A stretch of DNA of 32,000 nt from NCBI RefSeq assembly GCF_963922255.1, contig NZ_CAWUIC010000016.1:11360-43359 (forward strand), in the 5' to 3' direction. The notes under the pieces were generated by a model that saw only the letters and a program-made list of their open reading frames with translations, did not search any database and was not told the origin of the DNA. Shown here piece after piece: positions 3,560 through 26,127 of the stretch. This DNA is from an uncultured Flavobacterium sp. Its GTDB lineage: Bacteria; Bacteroidota; Bacteroidia; Flavobacteriales; Flavobacteriaceae. A program made the translations under genes and the position numbers. Positions within the stretch are counted from its first letter, which is position 1, and each line of letters starts with the position of its first letter.

Positions 3560-4377
3560 GAATTAATATACTGCGAAATTCCCTTTTCAATGGCAGTTAT
3601 ATTATGTTTTTTATTATATGCTCTGATAGCAAAATTTTTCTCCCAAGTTTCTTTGGTGGCATAACCTCTTTTATGATCTAAATGCAAACAAATAGCTTGA
3701 TAGCGAATTTGTTTTGCCAAAACACCAAAATTGAATAAACGTTCTCCAACTTCTCTATCTAAACCACCATATTGCATTTCTTCGTTGAAACCATTTACAG
3801 CGATTAAATCACTTTTAAAACAAGAAGTATTGTGACCATTGAAGGTTTTCTTGGTTGGAGTTATCCAATTCATAAAAATAGCAAAATACTTATTATGTGT
3901 CAGTTTTGTTAACTTAAAACTTTTTTTAACTCCATTTTTAATCAACCAAGATGTTGAAAAACAATTTTGCATTTTTATATCTTCAAATGAAATAGTTTTT
4001 GAAGTTATCATTGGTAATTTAAAATAACCACCAGAAAGAAAATATCCTTTTTCTTGAAATTTCAGATGTTGAGCCACAAAATCTTTCCTTGGAATACAAT
4101 CTCCATCTGTGAATAATAAATACTCTGAATTAGTTTTAAGTATGGCTTTATTTAGAATTTTACATTTTTGAAAACCATTGTCTTCTTGCCAAACATGAAC
4201 AATTGGAAACTTATATTTAGTTTGAAAAGACTGAATTACATCCTTAGTTTTATCATTAGAACCATCATCAGCAACAACAACTTCAAAATCATTCTCGGTT
4301 TGATGGCAATAGCCTTCGAGAACTTTTGATAGCCATTCTTCTGAATTGTAAGTAGTAATGATTACGGATACCTTCAT
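3556..4377 (-). CDS. Glycosyltransferase family 2
   Basis: Motifs VSVIITTYNSEEWL, VVADDGSNDKT and FTDGDCI (DxD). It is a paralog of 5244-6047, sharing HVW.ED.G.QK.KI.NKAI and the C-terminal IEKGI.QYI. Confidence 0.8.
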   Translation of the reverse strand: MKVSVIITTYNSEEWLSKVLEGYCHQTENDFEVVVADDGSNDKTKDVIQSFQTKYKFPIVHVWQEDNGFQKCKILNKAILKTNSEYLLFTDGDCIPRKDFVAQHLKFQEKGYFLSGGYFKLPMITSKTISFEDIKMQNCFSTSWLIKNGVKKSFKLTKLTHNKYFAIFMNWITPTKKTFNGHNTSCFKSDLIAVNGFNEEMQYGGLDREVGERLFNFGVLAKQIRYQAICLHLDHKRGYATKETWEKNFAIRAYNKKHNITAIEKGISQYINS

Positions 4378-4402
4378 GAAAACTATTAAGTTTGGAAAAT
4401 TA

Positions 4403-5188
4403 CTATTTTTTCCAAAACTTTAACCTCTTTTTTATCCTTTTTTTTCGGTAAAAACGATATTGAAAATCTTTAGTCAAGTTCCACATAGTCGTAAAAACTT
4501 TATCTTCATCGATTCCTGAAAGTTTTGCATATTCGTTACTCATTATAGCAACCATATCTTCTTTTGGAGTAATTTTAGAAAGATTTTTCATTCGAGTTTC
4601 AAAATTCATTGAATCATGAAATTTCATTCTGTTTAAATCCACTAAATAAAAATCATATTTACCTTCAGGTTTTTTGATAATCAGTGTGTTTCCTGGTGAA
4701 TGATCTAAAAATTCAATTCCTTTTTCATGCATCAAAAACGTGAATTGGGTAAACTGACGTAATATATTTTCTGCATCTGGATAATCGGTTTCAACTAATT
4801 CACGATACGTTAAATCGCATTGTAAATGTTCACTTACGTAGTAACTATTTTTTAATCCTAAAAAAGAAGAATTTTCAAAATAAGCAATTGGTTTTGGAGT
4901 TCCAATATTATTCTTTAATAAATGATTTGCATATTCGAACGAGCGTTGAGCTTTAGATTTTCTAAAATATCGGTAAGCAATTTTATTAATTAAATTAGGT
5001 TCTTTAAACGATTTTACATTTAAAGTTAACTTATTTAACTCAAAAAGTTTAATGGTATTTCTGTTTCCTTTTATGAATATTTGACCCGAATTATCGAAAT
5101 TCTTGATGAAATTTTCAATTTGTTCTTTCTTTTCTAAAAAGGTATCGTTTAGTTTGTACACCATTATTTTTTTTTCAAAATTATGCAT
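4403..5188 (-). CDS. Lipopolysaccharide/Kdo kinase family protein (protein-kinase-like fold)
   Basis: It has a catalytic-loop-like LDHSPGNTLI and a DFG-like YLVDLNRM, with size and context inside an LPS-core cluster. The start could instead be Met9 (5164). Confidence 0.6.
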   Translation of the reverse strand: MHNFEKKIMVYKLNDTFLEKKEQIENFIKNFDNSGQIFIKGNRNTIKLFELNKLTLNVKSFKEPNLINKIAYRYFRKSKAQRSFEYANHLLKNNIGTPKPIAYFENSSFLGLKNSYYVSEHLQCDLTYRELVETDYPDAENILRQFTQFTFLMHEKGIEFLDHSPGNTLIIKKPEGKYDFYLVDLNRMKFHDSMNFETRMKNLSKITPKEDMVAIMSNEYAKLSGIDEDKVFTTMWNLTKDFQYRFYRKKRIKKRLKFWKK

Positions 5189-5243: not shown

Positions 5244-6047
5244 ATGAGTTTATTACCAAAATCATCCCTTGTAACTCCAACTTATAATTGGCCAGAAGCT
5301 TTAGAACTTTTACTTTTAAGCATAAAGAATCAAAGCGTTTTACCAAATGAAGTTATAATTGCTGATGATGGTTCAAGAGAGGAAACTACTCAATTGATTC
5401 AAAAATTTCAAACTGATTTTCCGGTGCCTTTAATTCATGTTTGGCACGAAGACAATGGCAATCAGAAACCAAAAATCATGAACAAAGCAATTGCAAAAGC
5501 TAAACATGATTACATTATAGAAATTGATGGTGACATTATTATGCACAAAGATTTTGTAAAAGACCATTTGACTTATGCCGAAAAAGGACTTTATTTATTT
5601 GGTTCAAGAGTAAATATTCAAAAAGATATTTTAAAAACTATTTTTGATAAAAAGATAATCAACTTTGGTTTTTTCGCTAAAGGCATTAAAAAAAGAACTA
5701 GAACTGTTCGTTTTCCATTATTTATGAAATATGCTAAAATTCACGAAGAACGTTCAGGAAAATTGAGAGGTTGTAATATGTCTTTTTGGAGAGAAGATTT
5801 CATTAAAATCAACGGTTTTAATGAAGGTTTAGTAGGTTGGGGAATTGATGATTCTGAAATGATTCAACGTTTACATAATATTGGAATTAAAGGAAAAAGG
5901 TTGAAACAAACAGCTATTGCTTATCATATTTATCATAAAGAACAAGATAAAAACAACCTTGAAATTAATAATGCAATAGAAAAAGAAACCACTGAAAAAA
6001 GAATTACCTTTATTGAAAAAGGGATAAATCAATATATTTGTAACTAA
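5244..6047 (+). CDS. Glycosyltransferase family 2
   Basis: Motifs TPTYNWPEAL, IIADDGSREET and EIDGDII (DxD). It is a paralog of 3556-4377. Confidence 0.8.
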   Translation: MSLLPKSSLVTPTYNWPEALELLLLSIKNQSVLPNEVIIADDGSREETTQLIQKFQTDFPVPLIHVWHEDNGNQKPKIMNKAIAKAKHDYIIEIDGDIIMHKDFVKDHLTYAEKGLYLFGSRVNIQKDILKTIFDKKIINFGFFAKGIKKRTRTVRFPLFMKYAKIHEERSGKLRGCNMSFWREDFIKINGFNEGLVGWGIDDSEMIQRLHNIGIKGKRLKQTAIAYHIYHKEQDKNNLEINNAIEKETTEKRITFIEKGINQYICN

Positions 6048-7153
6048 CTTACACCCACTAATTTTTGATATTCTTCTAAAGTTTTCTGAGCAATATATTT
6101 TGCAGTGAAGTGTTCTTTTATTATTGCTTTTCCTTTTTCGGAGAATTGTTTTTGCAATTCTTTATTATCTAGTAATTTCTGTAATTTTTCAGCTAAAGAT
6201 TTACTGTCTTTTATGTCAGCTATAAAACCATTTTCTCCATCAATAATAATATCAGAAACAACACCAACTTTAGTGGAAACTATTGGAATTCCAATCAACA
6301 TAGCTTCTAATAAGGATGTTGGACCACCTTCACGTTGAGAAGTTAGTAAAAACGCATCAAATTGCGTATTTAAAGAAGAAGCATTTTTAATTTTATCCAT
6401 AAAAACTATCTCCTTGAAAACTCTTTTTTCAATAGCATACTGTTTTAAACTATCAGTTTTTTTAGAAAATTCACCAACTTGAATAAACACTATATCATTT
6501 CTTTTCAGATTATATTTTAATTCAGCAAGTGAATCAATTAAAGTGAATAAATCTTTCGCATTTGTATGATTGGCAATATTTCCAACAATAAATTTATCCT
6601 TTGGAATATTATATAAGTCTCTAATATTTATTTTACTAGATTTATCCAAAATATTTAAAGAAACACTATCATTGATAACAACAGTTTTGTTTAACGTTTT
6701 TTCGTTTAAAGTTTTACCAAAAGAATCTTGAACCATTTTTGAAACACAAATTATAGAGTCAATTCTTTTACTATTATATTTTAATTTACTCAAAAAACTA
6801 CCACTAACACCAACACCTTTTTTTGAAAAAATTAATTTTGTTTTAAACCTATAAATGAAATTTGAAATTAAAAAGAACATTAGTGAATCACTTGTATGCA
6901 AATGAACTATATCAGGTTTATGATTTTTAATTGTTTCTGCTAAATGCTTATAATTAGAAAATTTATTAAGTTTTCTTGTTTTACAAGCTAAAAAAGGTAT
7001 ATTTATTTTACTACATTCGCTTTGTAAAACCGACCTATTAAGTCCATAAACAATATTTTCAATATTTAATCCGTTTAACTGTGGCACTATATAGATTATC
7101 TGTTGCTCATTTCCTCCCCAACCTTTTGCTCCAGATATATGTAGTATTTTCAT
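6044..7153 (-). CDS. Glycosyltransferase family 4 (GT-B fold)
   Basis: The N-terminus is MKILHISGAKGWGGNEQQ. The C-terminal EGGPTSLLEAMLIGIPIVSTKVG...DGENGF is the GT4 nucleotide-sugar binding region. Confidence 0.8.
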   Translation of the reverse strand: MKILHISGAKGWGGNEQQIIYIVPQLNGLNIENIVYGLNRSVLQSECSKINIPFLACKTRKLNKFSNYKHLAETIKNHKPDIVHLHTSDSLMFFLISNFIYRFKTKLIFSKKGVGVSGSFLSKLKYNSKRIDSIICVSKMVQDSFGKTLNEKTLNKTVVINDSVSLNILDKSSKINIRDLYNIPKDKFIVGNIANHTNAKDLFTLIDSLAELKYNLKRNDIVFIQVGEFSKKTDSLKQYAIEKRVFKEIVFMDKIKNASSLNTQFDAFLLTSQREGGPTSLLEAMLIGIPIVSTKVGVVSDIIIDGENGFIADIKDSKSLAEKLQKLLDNKELQKQFSEKGKAIIKEHFTAKYIAQKTLEEYQKLVGVS

Positions 7154-7249: not shown

Positions 7250-8167
7250 ATGCTAGATTTATCTATTGTTATTATAAATTACAATACAAGTAACTATACT
7301 ATTAAATGTATAGAAAGCATTTTTGAACATACTTCTGAAGATTTAAATTACAATATAAAGATTGTTGATAATCACTCTAGCAAAGGAGATGTTAACAACC
7401 TTGAACACTATTTAAAAAATTTAAATAACCCTAAAATTTCCTTTTTAAAAAATCATATTAATGTTGGATTTGGAGGAGGAAACATGATTGGTTGTCAATT
7501 TTCGGATGCAACTTATTATGCTTTTGTAAACAATGATTCATTGCTTCTAAATGATTGTTTTACTATCATTATAAATCAAATGAAAAAAAATGATGAATAT
7601 GGAATTTGTGGGCCTCAAAGTTATAAAGAAGATGGAAAATTATTACCAACTTTAGATCACTTTTCCTCTCCATTAAAAGAGTTGTTTGGAAGATATTTTT
7701 TAGAAAAAATTAATCCAAGAAAATACCCCAATAGAAAAATCGAATACAAAAGTCCTAAACGTGGACAGTTTGTATCAGGAAGCTTTATGGTGGTGAAATC
7801 GGAAGATTTTTGGAATGTAGGTGGATTTGATACCAACATTTTTTTATATCATGAAGAAACTGATTTATGTATTCGTTTGGCTAAAATAAAAAAATATGCT
7901 TACCTGATTCCTGAAGCAAAATTTATTCATTTTCATGGAGCTAGTACACCTAAGTCTATTGAAATTAAAACAGAATTAAAAGTTTCTTTACTTTATATAA
8001 TTAGAAAACATTATGGTTATATAAACTATAGAATTATATTACTTTTTCTTCAAATAAAGTATTTTATAAAGAGTATAAGAAAACCTAAATACTGGTATTT
8101 GTTTAATATCTTATTTAGAGGTGGAAGATTAACAGATTCATTGAAGCATAAGCAAAATAATAAATAG
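7250..8167 (+). CDS. Glycosyltransferase family 2 (rhamnosyltransferase-like)
   Basis: Motifs LSIVIINYNTSNYT, IVDNHSS, FVNNDS and YHEETDLCIRL. It has a hydrophobic C-terminal tail. Confidence 0.8.
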   Translation: MLDLSIVIINYNTSNYTIKCIESIFEHTSEDLNYNIKIVDNHSSKGDVNNLEHYLKNLNNPKISFLKNHINVGFGGGNMIGCQFSDATYYAFVNNDSLLLNDCFTIIINQMKKNDEYGICGPQSYKEDGKLLPTLDHFSSPLKELFGRYFLEKINPRKYPNRKIEYKSPKRGQFVSGSFMVVKSEDFWNVGGFDTNIFLYHEETDLCIRLAKIKKYAYLIPEAKFIHFHGASTPKSIEIKTELKVSLLYIIRKHYGYINYRIILLFLQIKYFIKSIRKPKYWYLFNILFRGGRLTDSLKHKQNNK

Positions 8168-9345: not shown

Positions 9346-11385
9346 ATGAAGTTGAAAAAAAAAATAAGCCTTTTTTTTAGGAGAAGAAGAAAAGTTAAAC
9401 AACTTGAAGATAAACTAAAAAACATACAACCTAAAGTACTTACTAAAATTGACAGAACACCTATTTCATTTAAAAGTTCTGAAAATCCAAAAGTTTCTAT
9501 AATTATTCCTTTTTATAACCAAGAAATTTACACTTGGAATTGTCTTCAGTATTTACATAAGAACTTGACTGATAATTATCCATTTGAAATTATATTAATT
9601 GACGATAATAGTTCTGAGAAATATGATTTCACAAATGCTTCTGGAATTAATATTATTAAAAATGAAACTAATTTAGGCTTTTTAAAAAATATTAACAAAG
9701 GAATAAACGCTTCCAAAGGCGAGTATGTTTATTTATTAAATAATGACACAGAAGTCTATGAAAACTTTCTAGATGAACTTTTTTATGTCTTTGAGAACCA
9801 TATGAATGTTGGTGCTGTTGGTTCTATGTTATTAAATCCAGATCAAACATTACAAGAAGCTGGTTCTGTCTTTATGAAAGATTTTACTATTCATCAAATT
9901 GTGAGAAACAGAAAACCGTTTTATCCAGAAGTTAATTATATAAGAAAAGTAGATTATTGCTCAGGATGTAGTTTATTATTTAAAAAGCATAAAGATAATG
10001 GAGATTTAAATTTATTCGATGAACAATTTGCTCCAGCTTATTTTGAAGAAACTGATTTATGTTTTGATTTAAAGTACAATCAAAATAAAAGTGTTTATTA
10101 TACACCTTTTTCTAAGGTTTTACATTTTAATGGAATTACATACAACGATAAATCTAAACAAAATCAAGAAAGTAATAACCGTAAAGAAATTTTATTTAAA
10201 ACGAATCAAAAGAAGTTTTATGATAAATGGAATCAACAAATAAATAGCATTCAAGCTGAATGTGTTGAAGATAGAATTTTAGAAATCAACAACAATAAAT
10301 CTATTTTATTTATAAACGATACTGTTCCAGAATTTGATAGAGATTCAGGTTCCAATAGATTGAAAGAAATTATGAATGTATTTGTAGAAAAAGGGTACAA
10401 TGTATCTTTCGTTTCTAAAGATATATTCATATGGCAAGCCTATTTAGAAGTTTATCAAAGAATGGGAATTAATAGTTTTTATGAACATTTGCAGTACAAA
10501 GATTATAAATATTTTATTTCAAAATATTGTGCAAATGCTAACTATGTTTGGATTTATGGTCCTAATAGTTTTAAAAATTATTATGAAAAAATTAAATCTC
10601 TTTTTTCAAATGCAAAATTCATTTATGATATGGTTGACATTCATCATTTAAGATTTAAAAGAGCATCTGAAATCAACAAAGAAGATAAAAGTAATTTAAA
10701 AAACTATTTAGCCTACAAAAAAATTGAACTAGAAGCCGCAAAAGTATCTGATTATACAATTACTATTTCTGATGACGAAAAAGAGTTCATGAAAACATAT
10801 TGTGATGAAGAAAAACTAATTACAATATCTAATATTCATTATCCTAAAGTAAAACAAACAGAAATAAATCAGTTTGACCATAGAAGTGATATTCTATTCA
10901 TTGGTTCTACACATCATCCAAATGTAGATGCTATTTATTTTTTATATAATAATATAATGCCAATTGTATGGAAGTCTTATCCAAAAATGAAAGTAAATAT
11001 TATTGGTAATATAAATACTGTTGTTAAAGATATTACTGATGAAAGATTCATTTTCCATGGTTTTGTTTCTGATATTGAACCACTATTTAATAATGCAAAA
11101 TTAATGGTAGCTCCTTTATTGATTGGTGCAGGTGTGAAAGGAAAAATCGGTCAAGCTTTTGAATATTACCTACCTGTTGTAACAACTAGTATTGGAGCAG
11201 AAGGAATGTTTTTAAAAGATGAAGAAAATGTTTTAATTGCAGATGAACCAAAAGATTTTGCTAACTCAATTATAAAATTATACACTGATGATGTCATTTG
11301 GAAAAAACTTTCTCAAAATTCAGAAAAAAGTTTGTACCCTTTTTCTATTGAAAAAGTAAATGATGTTATTAATGAAAATTTTTAA
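9346..11385 (+). CDS. Two-domain glycosyltransferase: N-terminal GT2 fused to a C-terminal GT4-like GT-B domain
   Basis: The N-terminal half has VSIIIPFYNQE, LIDDNSS, LLNNDT and YFEETDLCFDL. The C-terminal half has FDRDSGSNRLKEI and GAGVKGKIGQAFEYYLPVVTTSIGAEGM. Size is 679 aa. Confidence 0.75.
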   Translation: MKLKKKISLFFRRRRKVKQLEDKLKNIQPKVLTKIDRTPISFKSSENPKVSIIIPFYNQEIYTWNCLQYLHKNLTDNYPFEIILIDDNSSEKYDFTNASGINIIKNETNLGFLKNINKGINASKGEYVYLLNNDTEVYENFLDELFYVFENHMNVGAVGSMLLNPDQTLQEAGSVFMKDFTIHQIVRNRKPFYPEVNYIRKVDYCSGCSLLFKKHKDNGDLNLFDEQFAPAYFEETDLCFDLKYNQNKSVYYTPFSKVLHFNGITYNDKSKQNQESNNRKEILFKTNQKKFYDKWNQQINSIQAECVEDRILEINNNKSILFINDTVPEFDRDSGSNRLKEIMNVFVEKGYNVSFVSKDIFIWQAYLEVYQRMGINSFYEHLQYKDYKYFISKYCANANYVWIYGPNSFKNYYEKIKSLFSNAKFIYDMVDIHHLRFKRASEINKEDKSNLKNYLAYKKIELEAAKVSDYTITISDDEKEFMKTYCDEEKLITISNIHYPKVKQTEINQFDHRSDILFIGSTHHPNVDAIYFLYNNIMPIVWKSYPKMKVNIIGNINTVVKDITDERFIFHGFVSDIEPLFNNAKLMVAPLLIGAGVKGKIGQAFEYYLPVVTTSIGAEGMFLKDEENVLIADEPKDFANSIIKLYTDDVIWKKLSQNSEKSLYPFSIEKVNDVINENF

Positions 11386-14259: not shown

Positions 14260-14820
14260 ATGAACACAGAAATACACAACGCATACGAAGTAATAAAAGA
14301 AGGTGGAATAATCCTTTATCCAACTGATACTGTTTGGGGAATTGGTTGTGATGCATCTAATGAAGAAGCCGTTGCAAAAATATATGCTCTTAAAAAAAGA
14401 GAAGAAAGCAAAAGCATGATTTGCCTTATGAATTCTGAAAAAATGGTTTTTAACGTTTTTAAAGACATTCCAGAAGTAGCTTGGGAAATTTTAGATTTGT
14501 CGGAAAAACCTACTACTTTAATTTTAGATAAACCTAGAAATGTAGCGAAAAATTTAGTCGCTCAAGATGATACTCTTGCCATCAGAATTGTAAAAGAGCC
14601 TTTTTGTTTTAAATTAATGGAACGCATGAAAAGACCTTTGGTTTCTACTTCTGCAAACATTTCGGGTGAACCAACACCAAAATCCTTCAAAGAAATATCA
14701 TCTGAAATTATAAAAGGTGTAGACTATGTAGTAAATTTGCATCACGAAAAAATTTGCAAAAATCCTTCAACAATTATAAAACTAGGATTAGATAGTCAAG
14801 TGAAAATTATTCGTAAGTAA
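14260..14820 (+). CDS. tsaC: L-threonylcarbamoyladenylate synthase (YrdC/TsaC family)
   Basis: It has ILYPTDTVWGIGCDA, KKREESKSMICLM and VSTSANISGEP. At 186 aa it is a single-domain YrdC-type protein. Confidence 0.8.
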   Translation: MNTEIHNAYEVIKEGGIILYPTDTVWGIGCDASNEEAVAKIYALKKREESKSMICLMNSEKMVFNVFKDIPEVAWEILDLSEKPTTLILDKPRNVAKNLVAQDDTLAIRIVKEPFCFKLMERMKRPLVSTSANISGEPTPKSFKEISSEIIKGVDYVVNLHHEKICKNPSTIIKLGLDSQVKIIRK

Positions 14821-14827
14821 TTAAATA

Positions 14828-14848
14828 ACCGCAGATTCGCAGATTTTT
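14828..14848. repeat. Left arm of a perfect 21-bp inverted repeat bracketing the GxxExxY ORF
   Basis: ACCGCAGATTCGCAGATTTTT contains a tandem octamer CGCAGATT x2 (14830-14845). It ends 5 nt before the ATG at 14854. Confidence 0.95.
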
Positions 14849-14853
14849 TTACA

Positions 14854-15237
14854 ATGGAAGATTATTTACATAAAGAAGAAACATTTAAAATCATAGGAAT
14901 ATTATTTGAAGTTCATAAAAATCTTGGAAAAGGATTTTCTGAAATTGTATATAAAGATGCTATCGAGTTTGAATTTAATGAAAATAAAATTCCTTTTGAA
15001 AGAGAAAAAGAATTTTCAGTGAATTACAAAAACACAACCTTAAAACACAAGTTTTATGCTGATTTTGTGGTTTTTAATAAAATTATTCTAGAAGTAAAAA
15101 CAGTTGATTGCTTTAACAACAGTCATTATAATCAGTGTTTAAACTATTTACGAGTATCTAATAATGAATTAGCTTTATTAGTTAATTTTAATTCTATTTC
15201 ACTTGAATACAAGAGAATTGTAAGAACAAAAAAATAA
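14854..15237 (+). CDS. GxxExxY protein (PD-(D/E)XK nuclease-fold family)
   Basis: GFSEIVY matches GxxExxY. ADFVV...ILEVK supplies a D...ExK nuclease-type triad. The 127-aa size is typical of the family. Confidence 0.8.
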
Positions 15238-15256
15238 AAATCTGCGAATCTGCGGT
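15236..15256. repeat. Right arm of the perfect 21-bp inverted repeat
   Basis: AAAAATCTGCGAATCTGCGGT is the exact reverse complement of 14828-14848. It begins inside the TAA stop codon (15235-15237). Confidence 0.95.
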
Positions 15257-15262
15257 AAAAAA

Positions 15263-16690
15263 ATGAATTACACAAAAGCTCTAAATAACCCAATTTTTAA
15301 AATCATTGCAAAGGCAAGTCAAGAACTTAATGTTGAAACTTATGTTATCGGTGGTTTTGTTCGCGATTTTCTCTTAAATAGACCTTCTAAGAAAGATATA
15401 GACGTCGTTGCTGTTGGAAGTGGTATTGATTTAGCTCTTAAAGTTTCTGAGCTCTTACCAAACAAACCAAAAGTCCAACTTTTTAAAAACTACGGAACAG
15501 CAATGCTTCGTTACAAAGACACAGACATCGAATTTGTAGGTGCTAGAAAAGAAAGCTATCAAACAGAAAGTCGAAATCCAAAAGTTGAAATTGGAACGCT
15601 TCAAGATGATCAAGAAAGAAGAGATTTTACTATAAATGCTTTAGCTTTTTCTTTGAATGAAAACAATTATGGTGATTTAGTTGATCCATTTAATGGTGTT
15701 TCAGATTTGGAATCTAAAACCATCAGAACACCTTTAAATCCTGATATCACTTATTCTGATGACCCTTTACGAATGATGCGTGCAATTCGTTTTGCAACAC
15801 AATTGAATTTCGAAATCGAGGCTGAATCTTTAGAGGCTATTTCAAGAAATAAAGAACGAATTTCAATCATTTCTGGAGAACGAATTGTAGACGAATTAAA
15901 CAAAATTCTTTTAACAGACAAACCTTCAATTGGCTTTCTACTTTTATACAAAACTGGACTTTTAGACATTATCCTTCCTGAATTAACTGCATTAAATAAT
16001 GTAGAAGAAATTGAAGGTCATACCCATAAAAACAACTTTTATCATACCTTAGAAGTTGTAGATAATATTTGCCCAAATACTGATGATGTCTGGTTGCGTT
16101 GGGCTGCTTTGTTGCACGATATTGGAAAAGCTCCCACAAAAAAATTTAGTAAAAAGAATGGATGGACATTTCATGGACATGAATTTTTAGGGGGAAAAAT
16201 GGTAAAAAAAATCTTCATAAGATTACACATGCCACAAAACCAAAAAATGAAGTTTGTCCAAAAAATGGTTATGATGAGCTCGCGTCCAATTGTTTTATCA
16301 GAAGATATTGTCACCGATTCAGCTGTTAGAAGATTGATATTTGATGCTGGTGAAGATGTTGAAAATTTGATGACACTTTGTGAAGCTGATATTACTACTA
16401 AAAACCCTCATAAATTCAAAAAATACCATAACAATTTTGATATTGTTAGGCAAAAAATTGTCGAAGTTGAAGAACGTGATCATGTAAGGCAATTTCAACC
16501 TCCTATTTCAGGTGAAGAAATCATGGAAATTTTCAATCTAAAACCTTCAAGAGAAATCGGTGTTTTGAAAGAAGCTGTTAAAGAAGCCATATTAGAAGGA
16601 GAAATTCCTAATGAATATGAAGCTGCTTACCAATTTATTTTAGTAAAAGCAGCTAAGATGGGTTTAACTCCTATTCAAAAAAACAAATAA
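15263..16690 (+). CDS. cca: tRNA nucleotidyltransferase (CCA-adding) / poly(A) polymerase family protein with HD domain
   Basis: GGFVRDFLL...DIDVVA is a pol-beta nucleotidyltransferase motif, followed by [12 protein letters not shown] and the HD motif LLHDIGK. Size is 475 aa. Confidence 0.75.
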
Positions 16691-24355: not shown

Positions 24356-24883
24356 ATGATTTATAAATTTAGAGCTATATTAGATACTAAAGAAGATATT
24401 TTTAGAGATATTGCTATAGAAAAAACAAACACTTTAGAGGATTTACACAACGCAATTGTCAACGCTTTTGGTTTTGACGGAACTGAAATGGCTTCATTTT
24501 ATATGTGTGATGATGAATGGAATCAAGAATTTGAAATTCCACTATTTGACACCGGAGAAACTGAAGGTGAAGTGAGAACAATGAATGAGTTTATTCTTGA
24601 AGATAATTTAGACAAATACCACACAAAAATTATTTACGTTTATGATTTCTTAAACATGTGGACTTTCTACGTGGAATTAGCCGTAATTGAAGATGAAAAA
24701 GAAGAAGGTGTAATTTATCCAGCTTTATTATTCTCTCAAGGTGAAGTTCCTTTAGAAGCGGAAGACAAGTTATTTCAAGCTGAAGGCAGCTTAGATGAAG
24801 ATGATTATGACGAAGATGATTTAGATATGTTCGAAGGTGATGACAGCTTTGAAGATTTTGGTTTTGAAGAAAATTGGAATTAA
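24356..24883 (+). CDS. PRiA4_ORF3-like (plasmid pRiA4b ORF-3 / IS1096 passenger TnpR-like) family protein with acidic tail
   Basis: The N-terminus IYKFRAILDTKEDIFRDIAIEKTNTLEDLHNAIVNAFGFDG and YVYDFLNMW are typical of the family. The last ~40 aa are strongly D/E-rich. Confidence 0.55.
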   Translation: MIYKFRAILDTKEDIFRDIAIEKTNTLEDLHNAIVNAFGFDGTEMASFYMCDDEWNQEFEIPLFDTGETEGEVRTMNEFILEDNLDKYHTKIIYVYDFLNMWTFYVELAVIEDEKEEGVIYPALLFSQGEVPLEAEDKLFQAEGSLDEDDYDEDDLDMFEGDDSFEDFGFEENWN

Positions 24884-24895
24884 ACTTTTAGGTTA

Positions 24896-24920
24896 AAAGG
24901 TTATGAGTTTATAAGGTTAA
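24896..24920. repeat. Left arm of a 25-bp inverted repeat (24/25) in the spacer before the nucleoid-associated protein gene
   Basis: AAAGGTTATGAGTTTATAAGGTTAA begins 12 nt after the upstream stop codon. Confidence 0.9.
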
Positions 24921-25035
24921 AAGGTATTGTGGAATTACATACTTTTAAAAATATAACTTTATTTAATCTTTTTTTTTACTCAAAACCTTCTAAATTCTAA
25001 TACTCTTAATTTTCTACACAAACCCTTTTAAACTC

Positions 25036-25060
25036 TTAACCTTATAAACTTATAACCTTT
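25036..25060. repeat. Right arm of the 25-bp inverted repeat
   Basis: TTAACCTTATAAACTTATAACCTTT is the reverse complement of the left arm with one mismatch. It ends 8 nt before the ATG at 25069. Confidence 0.9.
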
Positions 25061-25068
25061 CCTCACAA

Positions 25069-26127
25069 ATGATAAACCTATTCAACGCCCACATAGACAA
25101 TCTTTCCATTCATAGAGTTGGAAATAAAAGCCGAAACGAAGCCATCTTTTTATCTGAAAACCCTTATGGTTTAAATGATGAAATTATGCCTTTATTAAAA
25201 GAATACTTCTTTAAACCTTTTCGTGAAAAAGAAGAAAACTACTTTCAATTTGCTCATGATGTGGATTTAGAATATAACGATATGTTCAACTTAGCTACTG
25301 AGATTTTTACTAATCCAAGTGAAGTTCATAATGTATCTAAAAAAATAACAACACATTTGTTTGAGCAATCAAATCATCCGCATATTAAAAATGGTGAAGT
25401 TTATGTTGCTTACTTTTCAAATGTTTCGATTGACAATAATGTTGTCGATGCCATTGGTGTTTTCAAAAGTGAAGTACAAACAGATTTCTTGCAATTTGAA
25501 GAAAACGGAAGCAATCTTGAAATGATTTTACAACAAGGAATTAACTTGAATAAGTTGGATAAAGGTTGTATTATTTTCAATTATAAAAAGGAAGAAGGTT
25601 ATAAAATTTTAACCGTTGATAGCAATAGATATGATGCTCGTTATTGGTTAGAACATTTCTTATCTGTTGATGCTTTTCAAGATGAAAATTTCATGACTAA
25701 GAAGTATTTAAAATTCTGTCAAGACTTTGCTAAAGATGTAGTTTTACCTGCAGAAGACAAACAACAAGAGGTTTTATTCATGAATAGAGCTATCAATCAC
25801 TTTGCAAAAAATGACGCTTTTGAAGAAACTGCTTTCTTGAATGAGGTTATGGAAAACCCAGAATTTATTCCAGAATTTAAAAACTACAAAGTAGATAAAG
25901 GTGAAAAATATAGTATTGAAGACGTAACTGATTTTCCTATTGCAAATGCAGCTGTGACTGATGTTCGTAAGAAATTGAAAAACACCATTCATTTAGATAC
26001 AAATGTTCAAATTAAGTTAGACTTTGTAAACTCTGATTCTGCTCAAAAATTTGTTGAAAAAGGTTGGGACGAAGAAAAACAAATGTATTATTACTTAGTT
26101 TACTTTAATAAAGAACAGAAAGTATAG
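25069..26127 (+). CDS. Nucleoid-associated protein, NdpA/YejK-like (NA37 family)
   Basis: The N-terminus LSIHRVGNKSRNEAIFLSENP and the overall 352-aa size match the flavobacterial nucleoid-associated protein family as I recall it. No search was run. Confidence 0.65.
   Translation: MINLFNAHIDNLSIHRVGNKSRNEAIFLSENPYGLNDEIMPLLKEYFFKPFREKEENYFQFAHDVDLEYNDMFNLATEIFTNPSEVHNVSKKITTHLFEQSNHPHIKNGEVYVAYFSNVSIDNNVVDAIGVFKSEVQTDFLQFEENGSNLEMILQQGINLNKLDKGCIIFNYKKEEGYKILTVDSNRYDARYWLEHFLSVDAFQDENFMTKKYLKFCQDFAKDVVLPAEDKQQEVLFMNRAINHFAKNDAFEETAFLNEVMENPEFIPEFKNYKVDKGEKYSIEDVTDFPIANAAVTDVRKKLKNTIHLDTNVQIKLDFVNSDSAQKFVEKGWDEEKQMYYYLVYFNKEQKV

Follow-up and report, generated by a model that had tools for sequence, protein, structure and literature searches.

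A GxxExxY nuclease gene framed by inverted octamer repeats in the tsaC-cca spacer of Flavobacterium resembles an rRNA intervening sequence in design

Why should a small gene wedged between two housekeeping genes be framed, almost to the nucleotide, by a perfect inverted repeat? The question arose in a 32-kb stretch of Flavobacterium DNA, the whole of which we analyzed and refer to as the window. The upstream host gene tsaC (L-threonylcarbamoyladenylate synthase, 14260..14820, + strand) and the downstream host gene cca (CCA tRNA nucleotidyltransferase, 15263..16690, + strand) are both co-oriented with a cassette that measures 429 nt from arm to arm (14828-15256, + strand). The whole inserted unit equals the full tsaC-cca spacer (14821..15262, + strand) and consists of short spacers, both arms, and the ORF. 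An earlier note on this DNA had offered two readings of the arrangement, one at the RNA level, where the arms would pair in a transcript like an RNase III substrate or an rRNA intervening sequence (IVS), and one at the DNA level, where they would be the ends of a small gene cassette without a transposase.

The perfect 21-nt inverted repeat was as that note described it. The left arm, ACCGCAGATTCGCAGATTTTT (14828..14848, + strand; 14828-14848 in the note), has an 18-nt core, ACCGCAGATTCGCAGATT (14828-14845), of two tandem CGCAGATT octamers followed by a TTT extension. The right arm, AAAAATCTGCGAATCTGCGGT (15236..15256, + strand; 15236-15256), is its exact reverse complement, so that each arm carries the octamer twice as had been claimed. 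Spacing to the ORF also agreed with the earlier account, with 5 nt between the left arm end and the ATG and a right arm that begins at base 2 of the TAA and shares the last two stop-codon bases. The right arm ends 6 nt before the cca ATG. A chance origin of the repeat was excluded, as the note had argued, by 2 matches at ≤3 mismatches against 0.00 expected from 100 shuffles. Up to 3 mismatches, there was no further arm copy in the 32-kb window. The octamer CGCAGATT occurred 4 times in 32 kb, always inside the arms (0.41 expected; no shuffle reached 4). A gathering-threshold scan of the window against Rfam gave no match. The right arm terminates in TGCGGT, a sequence that resembles the Haemophilus USS. 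A DNA-uptake sequence was ruled out by the presence of two copies only across the 32-kb window.

The ORF (14854..15237, + strand) encodes a GxxExxY protein of 127 aa, a minimal PD-(D/E)XK nuclease by its profile matches. It scored 134 bits to TIGR04256 (cut-off 35), covering model positions 2-116 of 116, and 122.3 bits to PF13366 PDDEXK_3 (cut-off 22), which bears out the nuclease-fold ORF that had been called between tsaC and cca. The predicted GFSEIVY motif and D...ExK triad were likewise upheld, with E30, D70, E80, and K82 invariant among seven proteins from six phyla. An AlphaFold (AF2) model of the protein (pLDDT 93.9) had the secondary-structure order alpha-alpha-beta-beta-beta-alpha-beta-beta, and its best PDB match was Cas4 SSO0001 (TM 0.60, E = 1e-5), followed by lambda exonuclease, splicing endonuclease, and Hjc. 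A sequence search of solved structures with the same protein gave no meaningful match. A profile search for diverse GxxExxY relatives returned mostly the same Flavobacterium clade again, and full-text literature searches on the family produced incidental mentions and statements of "function unknown" only. The role that we give the nuclease in the cassette is a putative one.

Both arms and ORF occupy the tsaC-cca site in about 75 of 80 Flavobacterium species, and the arms are conserved in all of them. Across 78 aligned cassettes, mean column identity was 0.92 in the left-arm core and 0.93 in the right arm, compared with 0.61 in the adjoining spacer. Column identities in the ORF were 0.88, 0.93, and 0.70 at the first, second, and third codon positions, and the ORF was intact in 75 of the 78. 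These values show that arms and protein are both under purifying selection at tsaC-cca across Flavobacterium. [quoted passage not shown] The right arm is the more uniform of the two among loci.

Among Flavobacteriaceae genera the tsaC-cca site is empty, occupied, or decayed. The search for empty sites that the earlier note had proposed found such junctions in Algibacter (16 nt) and Aestuariibaculum (69 nt), neither with any trace of an arm. Relative to these empty sites, arms and ORF together are an insertion. Where the ORF is dead the arms are still present, which shows that the cassette can drop its ORF yet retain its arms.

The insertion is also exchanged between species. In the sister species L065 and L078 the flanks are 96.6 and 95.2% identical while the ORFs share 72.9% and the arm flavors differ, and a second block replacement separates L031 from L081. 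Each replaced block has sharp boundaries, the tsaC stop on one side and the cca ATG on the other. Assembly artefacts are unlikely because all four genomes come from cultured isolates. The window itself is identical to L001 over positions 14806-15241 save for 1 mismatch and a 5-nt indel, and the flanks of this block are 82% and 86% identical. By Fitch parsimony, the ORF tree accounts for arm flavor in 4 steps, against 21 for the host-flank tree and a random mean of 26.9; since flavor follows the ORF and not the host flanks, vertical inheritance alone was ruled out. Arms and ORF have thus repeatedly been swapped as one block for diverged alleles of other species. The other-flavor arm sequences were CGCAAATT and CACGAATA.

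Searches for the hallmarks of known mobile elements were negative within their scope. No direct repeat that could mark a target-site duplication was seen beyond the arms in the window, relatives, or ORF-less copies, no transposase was present within the cassette, and no integrase gene occurred in the neighborhoods inspected. An integron cassette was ruled out by the inverted repeats on both sides and the constant orientation of the ORF-bearing cassettes examined. A tblastn search of a phage collection gave no match, and of the 10 matches to the arms in viral contigs most were chance occurrences within unrelated sequence; a phage feature was rejected on these grounds.

The same arms recur at other sites, with and without the ORF, as the search suggested in the earlier note revealed. 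ORF-less minis with the same arms were found at L050, L008, and L011, and 38 further minis from metagenomes, with loops of ~70 nt, lie at ≥25 distinct and unrelated intergenic sites between convergent, divergent, and co-oriented gene pairs. Compared with Rfam, the 38 mini loci contained no rRNA and only two tRNAs and one Flavo-1 RNA. One assembly held at least seven copies of a composite element containing ORF-less arm pairs. A GxxExxY paralog, 57% identical and at another locus, has the same arms. Tandem arm arrays at L110, L128, and L136 invited a CRISPR-like reading that was ruled out because the "spacers" are near-identical. With the arms recurring elsewhere and conserved in relatives, the repeat cannot be called incidental, and the DNA-level reading of a small transposase-less cassette is borne out by the empty sites, the block replacement, the arm-ORF linkage, and the arms at other sites. 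The cassette resembles MITEs and small IS-derived elements in its terminal inverted repeats, its short ORF-less derivatives dispersed in intergenic DNA, and the one composite version that reached at least seven copies in an assembly. Unlike MITEs or IS elements, it has neither a transposase nor a visible target-site duplication, and its ORF-bearing copy is fixed at one conserved site in one orientation.

These distributions bear on whether the arms could be a host regulatory or insulating hairpin with no role in processing or mobility, for example an operator through which the ORF regulates itself, or a stem that stops a ribosome or an exonuclease from passing between tsaC, the ORF, and cca. 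Such a device would fit arms that hug the start and stop codons of the ORF in all loci, the constant 6-12 nt between the right arm and the cca ATG, and the greater uniformity of the right arm over the left. The empty sites show, however, that tsaC and cca do without it, the same arms surround short, unrelated loops between genes in convergent, divergent, and co-oriented pairs, and the arms travel with the cassette, independently of the host genes. We consider a host hairpin improbable.

The bracketed architecture extends beyond this gene and these arms. Distant GxxExxY genes in Sphingomonas (inside fabD-fabG), Bernardetia, and Treponema have analogous brackets built from other octamers. In the cca-ctaA spacer of Yeosuana and Mariniflexile, period-8 inverted arrays surround genes of PF05635, the "23S rRNA IVS protein", and arm-bracketed PF05635 genes in this spacer were present at loci L099, L100, and L102. 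These S23p-family cassettes have the same architecture and a product that is a four-helix bundle without a nuclease fold. PADLOC returned no defense-system match for the GxxExxY nuclease or the S23p-like protein.

Covariation indicated that pairing of the arms is maintained. In the alignment of the arms, 97.5% of cells were paired, a value reached by 0 of 500 shuffles and far from the 20-45% of slid controls. Six arm pairs had changed on both sides among Flavobacterium cassettes, and the arms of marine genera, GCCACGAATACACGAAT and ATTCGTGTATTCGTGGC, differ from those of Flavobacterium at six more compensated positions; much of the raw covariation count stems from two old cassette lineages, of G and A flavor, rather than from numerous independent events. 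Folding of the cassette region, which the earlier note had recommended, placed the arms in the closing stem of the MFE structure (z = -5.1), and RNAalifold recovered 15 of 18 arm-stem pairs as the sole sizeable conserved helix. Because a perfect inverted repeat would fold just as readily on the antisense strand, or as a cruciform or hairpin in DNA, its fold by itself does not identify RNA as the form that matters. Selection at the RNA level alone would be expected to leave a G.U bias among sense-strand mismatches, and none was seen (12 wobble, 16 A.C, 21 other); the absent wobble bias neither confirms nor excludes RNA pairing. The four octamer units were of one flavor in 74 of 76 loci and change together, and the unit itself is particular to each lineage or family. 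A simple RNase III stem gives no reason for tandem units that change in this concerted way.

Concerted change of the units is, on the other hand, the expected product of homogenization, and together with the absent wobble bias it would suit a repeat with no function that hitch-hikes with a conserved gene and whose two copies stay identical through template switching or gene conversion. Arms of 18-21 nt set about 400 nt apart are poor conversion substrates, however, and they are near-invariant genus-wide while third codon positions and the neighboring spacer have drifted. Arms of unrelated sequence but the same geometry are found in other phyla and also enclose genes of a different protein family, and the ORF is lost before the arms. 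A functionless repeat is strongly disfavored, and we regard it as scarcely credible.

The known elements that most resemble the cassette in layout are the IVSs of bacterial rRNA. The helix-45 IVS in the 23S rRNA of Coxiella burnetii is 428 nt long and has a 28-bp terminal stem that is cut by RNase III, tandem GACAGAT units at its 5' end, an ORF in the loop, and signs of horizontal acquisition. That ORF has been reported as decaying and probably untranslated, and a 2016 study of the Coxiella IVS described the mechanism and origin of bacterial IVSs as still unclear more than 25 years after their discovery. Compared with this element and with the Leptospira IVS, which has an S23p ORF, the cassette is alike in length (429 nt here, 428 nt in Coxiella), in the >20-bp stem with which terminal inverted repeats enclose the whole element, in its short tandem-repeat termini (GACAGAT in Coxiella, CGCAGATT here), and in a loop ORF of about 120 aa. 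Shared too are the existence of short ORF-less versions, the decay of the ORF with the termini kept, and a sporadic distribution with horizontal transfer between species. In relatives, a PF05635 (S23p-family) gene with octamer-array arms sits one spacer away. The cassette differs in that it lies between protein-coding genes and not in a 16S or 23S rRNA helix, and in that its ORF is a PF13366 PD-(D/E)XK nuclease and not an S23p / PF05635 four-helix bundle. Purifying selection on its ORF is also evident, with 75 of 78 copies intact, whereas the Coxiella ORF is reportedly decaying. Excision by RNase III was shown for rRNA IVSs and would apply here by analogy. The RNA-level likeness to an rRNA IVS or RNase III substrate is supported in design and covariation, that is by the Coxiella layout, the both-side changes, and the RNAalifold stem.

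We therefore favor, at about even chances, a selfish cassette of rRNA-IVS design in an mRNA spacer, in which a nuclease replaces the S23p protein and RNase III would cleave the stem. A sigma-70-type scan, with a consensus that does not cover Bacteroidota-type promoters, detected no excess of promoter-like sites near the cassette, and the sole terminator-like site around it was a trivial one, in the left arm on the minus strand. The orientation of the ORF-bearing cassettes examined always matches that of their neighbors. From the lack of a recognizable promoter or terminator of its own and this constant co-orientation we infer read-through from tsaC. The tsaC read-through transcript would then include the cassette, and pairing of its arms would give a duplex, 21 bp long here and 18-28 bp in relatives, with precisely the ORF in its loop. 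This duplex may be cut by RNase III, as happens in rRNA IVSs; the cut would part the tsaC message from that of cca, free or destabilize the ORF message, and so allow the host to tolerate the insertion. Between genomes, the cassette moves at the DNA level, either through recombination within the short stretches conserved at the gene ends or with assistance from the encoded nuclease. The DNA-level and RNA-level readings look like two aspects of one element.

A different account begins with the nuclease. The arms could be DNA recognition sites of the GxxExxY protein in the cassette, which would bind each of the 8-nt units, either as duplex DNA or after extrusion as a hairpin, and cut at or near the arms, with RNA pairing as a by-product; cutting would drive cassette replacement or homing and the spread of ORF-less arm pairs, in parallel to RAYT transposases and REP/REPIN or to a free-standing homing endonuclease. 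Recognition by the protein would account for four units per cassette that evolve in concert and are specific to a lineage or family, for the link between arm flavor and ORF lineage, and for the 57%-identical paralog that retains the same arms. ORF-less arm pairs at many sites, with at least seven composite copies in one assembly, and sharp replacement boundaries also point this way, as do stems without wobble bias and invariant catalytic residues in a protein whose nearest folds are DNA nucleases of the Cas4 / lambda-exonuclease type. Yet S23p cassettes are bracketed alike without a nuclease fold, so that the bracket needs no nuclease inside, and the arms survive a dead ORF. PD-(D/E)XK enzymes cut without strand transfer, no target-site duplication is visible, the 32-kb window has no other arm copy, and arm density is far under that of typical REPs. 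The arm-ORF linkage follows from physical proximity alone. We hold this account to be somewhat unlikely.

The two systems invoked by that account match the cassette in part. As with a RAYT gene and its REP/REPIN sequences, a small gene lies between short repeats in inverted orientation and has long been kept at a single locus, and different gene lineages pair with different repeat sequences. Dispersal of the repeat is matched in part: inverted doublets around short loops occur at ≥25 metagenome sites, and one assembly has at least seven composite copies. RAYTs, however, are HUH/Y1 transposases of the IS200/IS605 type, whereas only PF13366 / TIGR04256 matched here, repeat density is low with no further copy in 32 kb, and whole-cassette replacement between species is frequent in the cassette, unlike in RAYT/REPIN systems. 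Free-standing homing endonuclease genes of T-even phages are similarly small nuclease genes wedged between conserved genes, with presence/absence and allele polymorphism at a fixed site and a phylogeny discordant from that of the host. They differ in that the cassette flanks have no co-conversion gradient and in that the bracketing inverted repeats and ORF-less derivatives belong to the cassette and not to homing endonuclease genes. To our knowledge, GxxExxY is not a recognized homing endonuclease family.

A broader reading would unite these observations. GxxExxY and S23p cassettes, minis, and classical rRNA IVSs may form one mobile superfamily whose hallmark is arrays of tandem 7-8-nt units in inverted orientation. 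The encoded protein, here a PD-(D/E)XK nuclease, would recognize its own unit and work on the arms, which would drive homing or replacement and the spread of minis, and cutting of the arm duplex by the RNase III of the host would make the insertions harmless both in operons and in rRNA. We put this forward as a speculative proposal that, taken whole, is unlikely.

The literature consulted portrays IVSs as rRNA-gene parasites, with an origin, a mobility, and an ORF function that are all unclear. The cassette indicates that IVS-type architecture is not confined to rRNA, and the link between GxxExxY and IVSs gives a large family of uncharacterized nucleases a concrete genomic lifestyle. For annotation, it matters that such cassettes lie within the housekeeping operons tsaC-cca, fabD-fabG, and gmk-nadD, and that read-through of an arm sometimes gives spurious C-terminal gene extensions. 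In culturable Flavobacterium, both mobility and processing can be tested directly on dozens of natural variants: swapped alleles, empty sites, decayed copies, and derivatives without the ORF. If the superfamily reading were true, it would provide a mechanism and an origin for bacterial IVSs, and would amount to a RAYT/REPIN-like system built on a restriction-enzyme fold.

The GxxExxY gene in the tsaC-cca spacer is part of a self-contained, portable unit whose complementary arms are under selection. As the earlier note had described, the ORF (14854-15237, + strand, 127 aa) was enclosed by a perfect 21-nt inverted repeat, with ACCGCAGATTCGCAGATTTTT at 14828-14848 as the left arm and its exact reverse complement at 15236-15256 as the right arm (both listed on the + strand). 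The left arm ended 5 nt before the ATG, the right arm started within the TAA stop, and the cassette measured 429 nt arm to arm. Its neighbours, encoding TsaC (14260-14820) and the CCA-adding enzyme (15263-16690), were on the same strand as the ORF. A chance origin of the repeat is disfavoured, as searches allowing ≤3 mismatches detected no copies in the window beyond these two, and 0 in 100 shuffles. The octamer CGCAGATT occurred four times in the window, every time within the arms, against an expectation of 0.41. Folding the cassette gave a closed stem (z = -5.1), and no known RNA families were found in the window with Rfam. The window also contained a perfect 16-nt inverted repeat, TAGAAAAAGGGTACAA / TTGTACCCTTTTTCTA, at 10385-10400 and 11332-11347, whose arms have 931 nt between them and lie close to the end of the 9346-11385 ORF.

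A scan with one genome per species yielded 80 loci, almost all from Flavobacterium, with the order tsaC-GxxExxY-cca in about 75 of them and arms throughout. Across 78 aligned cassettes the arm columns were 0.92–0.93 identical vs 0.61 for the 12 nt immediately outside, and we consider it highly improbable that the arms have no function. Empty sites were present in Algibacter marinivivus and Aestuariibaculum lutulentum, with 16 and 69 nt, respectively, from the tsaC stop to the cca ATG. Neither site had any trace of the arms, which are therefore part of the cassette and not of the host spacer. The cultured sister species F. erciyesense (locus L065) and F. turcicum (L078) shared 96.6% and 95.2% identity in the flanks and 72.9% in the ORFs, and differed in arm flavour, meaning the sequence variant of the octamer units. 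F. omnivorum (L031) and F. xanthum (L081) had the same pattern, and in both pairs identity was high through the tsaC stop, collapsed over the spacer, arms, and ORF, and returned at the cca ATG. A metagenome contig (L001) matched the window over 14806-15241 except for one mismatch and a 5-nt indel, with tsaC and cca flanks of only 82% and 86% identity, and the Mariniflexile gromovii cassette (L077) was 87.6% identical to that of another locus (L076) with flanks of about 70%. Over all loci, arm flavour required 21 parsimony steps on the flank tree, near what random assignment gives (mean 26.9, minimum 20), vs 4 on the ORF tree. These step counts and the allele swaps point to a site that is almost always occupied, with an occupant that is often replaced and arms that travel together with the ORF. 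The sharp replacement boundaries may come from a site-specific mechanism, or from crossing-over within the tsaC and cca ends, which are short and highly conserved. A 940-nt contig of low coverage (L002, 1.3x), possibly a chimera, had an ORF identical to that of the window, a left arm with one base different, and unrelated sequence in place of cca directly after the right arm.

Arm flavours came in matched pairs, namely ACCGCAGATTCGCAGATT / AATCTGCGAATCTGCGGT, ACCGCAAATTCGCAAATT / AATTTGCGAATTTGCGGT, and GCCGCTGATTCGCTGATT / AATCAGCGAATCAGCGGC, the last in locus L082, and a GATGCGC arm variant in locus L005 was compensated on both sides. Other Flavobacteriaceae genera had the arms GCCACGAATACACGAAT / ATTCGTGTATTCGTGGC, which differed from those of Flavobacterium at six positions, all six compensated. 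Over the alignment, 97.5% of cells in the 18-bp stem were paired and six pairs had changed on both sides, values reached in 0/500 shuffles, and sliding the partner by 1–3 columns left 20–45% paired. RNAalifold independently recovered 15/18 stem pairs as the sole sizeable conserved helix. A purely regulatory hairpin is an improbable account of the arms. Because the site is usually occupied, the occupant is often swapped, and the arms move along with the ORF, the raw covariation traces in part to a small number of old cassette lineages rather than to many independent changes, but distinct compensated arm variants are still substantial in number.

Searching for the arms beyond tsaC-cca recovered cassette copies at other loci (L005, L008/L011), and a paralog of only 57% identity at a different locus (L130) had these arms too, in a nested arrangement. 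Minis, in which the same arms surrounded 65–76 nt of unrelated AT-rich sequence and no ORF, were found in L008, L011, and twice in L050. One L050 mini (2797-2909) was complete and followed an ORF without its own right arm, and the second (4333-4437) lay between cca and ctaA in place of an acetyltransferase gene. Locus L062 contained a solo right arm (2931-2948) of a different flavour, AATCAGCGAATCAGCGGC, 30 nt past the cassette's own right arm; this arm and the L050 minis look like scars of cassette turnover. Scanning metagenomes for the mini geometry gave 38 instances at ≥25 distinct intergenic sites, often 5–20 nt from gene ends, with convergent, divergent, or co-oriented neighbours, and none of the 38 was in rRNA. 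A composite MITE-like unit of ~205 nt, with CCGCAGATTCGCAGATT arms nested within the outer inverted repeat TTAGAGTCTGTCCATA / TATGGACAGACACTAA, occurred in at least seven copies in one assembly (sample Ga0156174; contigs L109, L112, L114, L117, L137, L138, L139), each with unique flanks. Arms also persisted around dead ORFs in L056, L063, L071, Mariniflexile rhizosphaerae, and M. litorale. The inactivating changes (cassette region of L056, L063, and L071; L099 2055-2216; L100 2146-2500) were internal stops, frameshifts, and 14-nt or 5'-end deletions, and these copies kept both arms, or at minimum the right arm, with 0–1 mismatch.

Three loci (L110 ~100-260, L128 ~5990-6150, L136 ~360-500) contained a tandem array of ~42-nt period, each repeat an arm plus the near-identical spacer GAATATTGCCGCAGATTCGCAGATTGTTATTGT..., with a single opposing arm at the end. 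Their likeness to CRISPR is superficial, as the spacers do not vary. In L134, a Flavo-1 RNA (RF01705, 72 bits; 7415-7492) had a mini element (7541-7644) about 50 nt away. The window itself had a second ORF-less element of mini-like design and another unit (24886-25062), with ~5 AAGGTTAW units opposite ~5 TAACCTTW units in 28-nt arms that were 93% complementary around a 109-nt loop. It was preceded by a PRiA4_ORF3-like gene (24356-24883) and followed by one for an NA37 nucleoid-associated protein (25069-26127), each on the + strand.

The encoded protein matched TIGR04256 ('GxxExxY protein') over its full length (134 bits, cut-off 35) and Pfam PF13366 (PDDEXK_3), in agreement with the assignment made from sequence. 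E30 of the GxxExxY motif, D70, E80, and K82 were invariant in seven proteins from Flavobacterium, Treponema, Persicobacter, a fusobacterium, Gemmatirosa, Bernardetia, and Sphingomonas. The nearest solved structure to the confident AlphaFold model (pLDDT 93.9) was the Cas4 nuclease SSO0001 (E = 1e-5, TM 0.60), with lambda exonuclease/RecE, tRNA-splicing endonucleases, and Hjc resolvase ranking next. The invariant residues and closest folds indicate a predicted minimal PD-(D/E)XK nuclease, with a modelled fold compatible with a DNA or RNA substrate. Column identities of 0.88/0.93/0.70 at codon positions 1/2/3 and intact ORFs in 75/78 cassettes show that the protein is under purifying selection. 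PADLOC gave no defence-system match, the phage collection searched had no homologs, and the literature contained only incidental mentions of the family, for which the Pfam entry lists the function as unknown.

The cassette was always oriented like its neighbours, and no promoter or terminator was evident in a scan with the sigma-70 consensus, a weak test in Bacteroidota; together these make read-through from tsaC probable. The arms in such a transcript would pair into a 21-bp duplex (18–28 bp in relatives) that RNase III could cut, by analogy with the intervening sequences (IVSs) of bacterial rRNA genes, and cleavage would split the host messages apart and free the ORF message or make it less stable. 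We give an IVS-type cassette processed by RNase III about even odds. Stem mismatches (12 G.U-type, 16 A.C-type, 21 other) had no wobble bias. Most arm variation was on the left, where an A-to-T change (alignment A1 columns 18 and 26; CGCTGATT / CGCTAATT) recurred without compensation at ≥11 loci in different cassette lineages, and the right arm was near-invariant within each flavour. All four units were of a single flavour in 74/76 loci and thus changed in concert. The missing wobble bias, the left-heavy variation, and the concerted tandem units count against a purely RNA-level account. Of the two readings in the earlier note, the DNA-level cassette was borne out by empty sites, block swaps, and arms elsewhere, and the RNA-level stem was supported by covariation and the conserved fold, with the mismatch pattern counting against it. 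An ordinary RNase III substrate has no need of concerted units, which leaves room for protein recognition unit by unit, most economically by the encoded nuclease. Such recognition may be the primary function, in a RAYT/REPIN-like or homing-like manner, but we consider this rather unlikely, given that cassettes of S23p (PF05635, the classic IVS-encoded family) share the architecture without any nuclease and that the arms outlive ORF loss. Nuclease-arm recognition and IVS-type processing by RNase III are not mutually exclusive.

Distant GxxExxY genes, carried by large plasmids or chromids, were wedged between co-oriented housekeeping genes with short-unit repeats on their flanks: CACGCGAAGGCGCGAGGACGCG / CGCGTCTTCGCGGCTTCGCGTG around the Sphingomonas gene (fabD-GxxExxY-fabG), CACAGAGA units in Bernardetia, ACACGGATTCG / CGAATCCGTGT in Treponema, and a direct repeat with AATCCGTG units on a fusobacterial plasmid. 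The Sphingomonas CDS was called through the right arm, giving a C-terminal extension (L088 2477-2905). Yeosuana and two Mariniflexile species had a PF05635 '23S rRNA intervening sequence protein' / bAvd-like gene (134–138 bits; L099 4063-4377, L100 3946-4308, L102 3981-4352) in the next spacer, cca-ctaA, which held a GxxExxY-type mini in L050. Inverted period-8 arrays, CAAAGTNN ... NNACTTTG, of up to 14.5 copies stood on both sides of these genes; in L100 the 14.5 tandem copies were downstream and the upstream units lay within the 3' end of cca. The M. litorale Cca was 8 aa longer, its 3' end reading through octamer units (L100 3900-3943).

The Coxiella 23S IVS is 428 nt long, with terminal inverted repeats that form a 28-bp stem cut by RNase III and 2–3 tandem GACAGAT units at the 5' end, directly ahead of the S23p ORF. 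It is thought to be horizontally acquired; its authors left the origin and mobility of IVSs unresolved and cited horizontal IVS transfer among Leptospira. The window cassette, at 429 nt, was of nearly the same length, matched it in layout, and had CAGAT within its unit. Two other published cases fit the IVS-type pattern: in F. columnare, gmk and nadD have a gene for a 'four helix bundle protein' between them, and the IVS-protein gene FP0094 of F. psychrophilum is expressed. RAYT/REPIN systems share the geometry, but the HUH transposase that defines RAYT is absent from the cassette. MITEs share inverted termini and short derivatives, whereas the cassette had no transposase or target-site duplication. 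Free-standing homing endonuclease genes share the population behaviour, and cleavage of a target allele by the cassette's putative nuclease would be a further likeness. No literature description of the bracket or of its conservation was found, nor of the cassette swaps and minis. The cassette resembled rRNA IVSs in every respect testable here, but it lies outside rRNA and carries a different ORF family, so we did not file it in the rRNA IVS class. We classify it instead as a variant of the IVS kind, an IVS-type element outside rRNA carrying a putative GxxExxY nuclease. The bracket design is common to the GxxExxY family and links it to rRNA IVSs.
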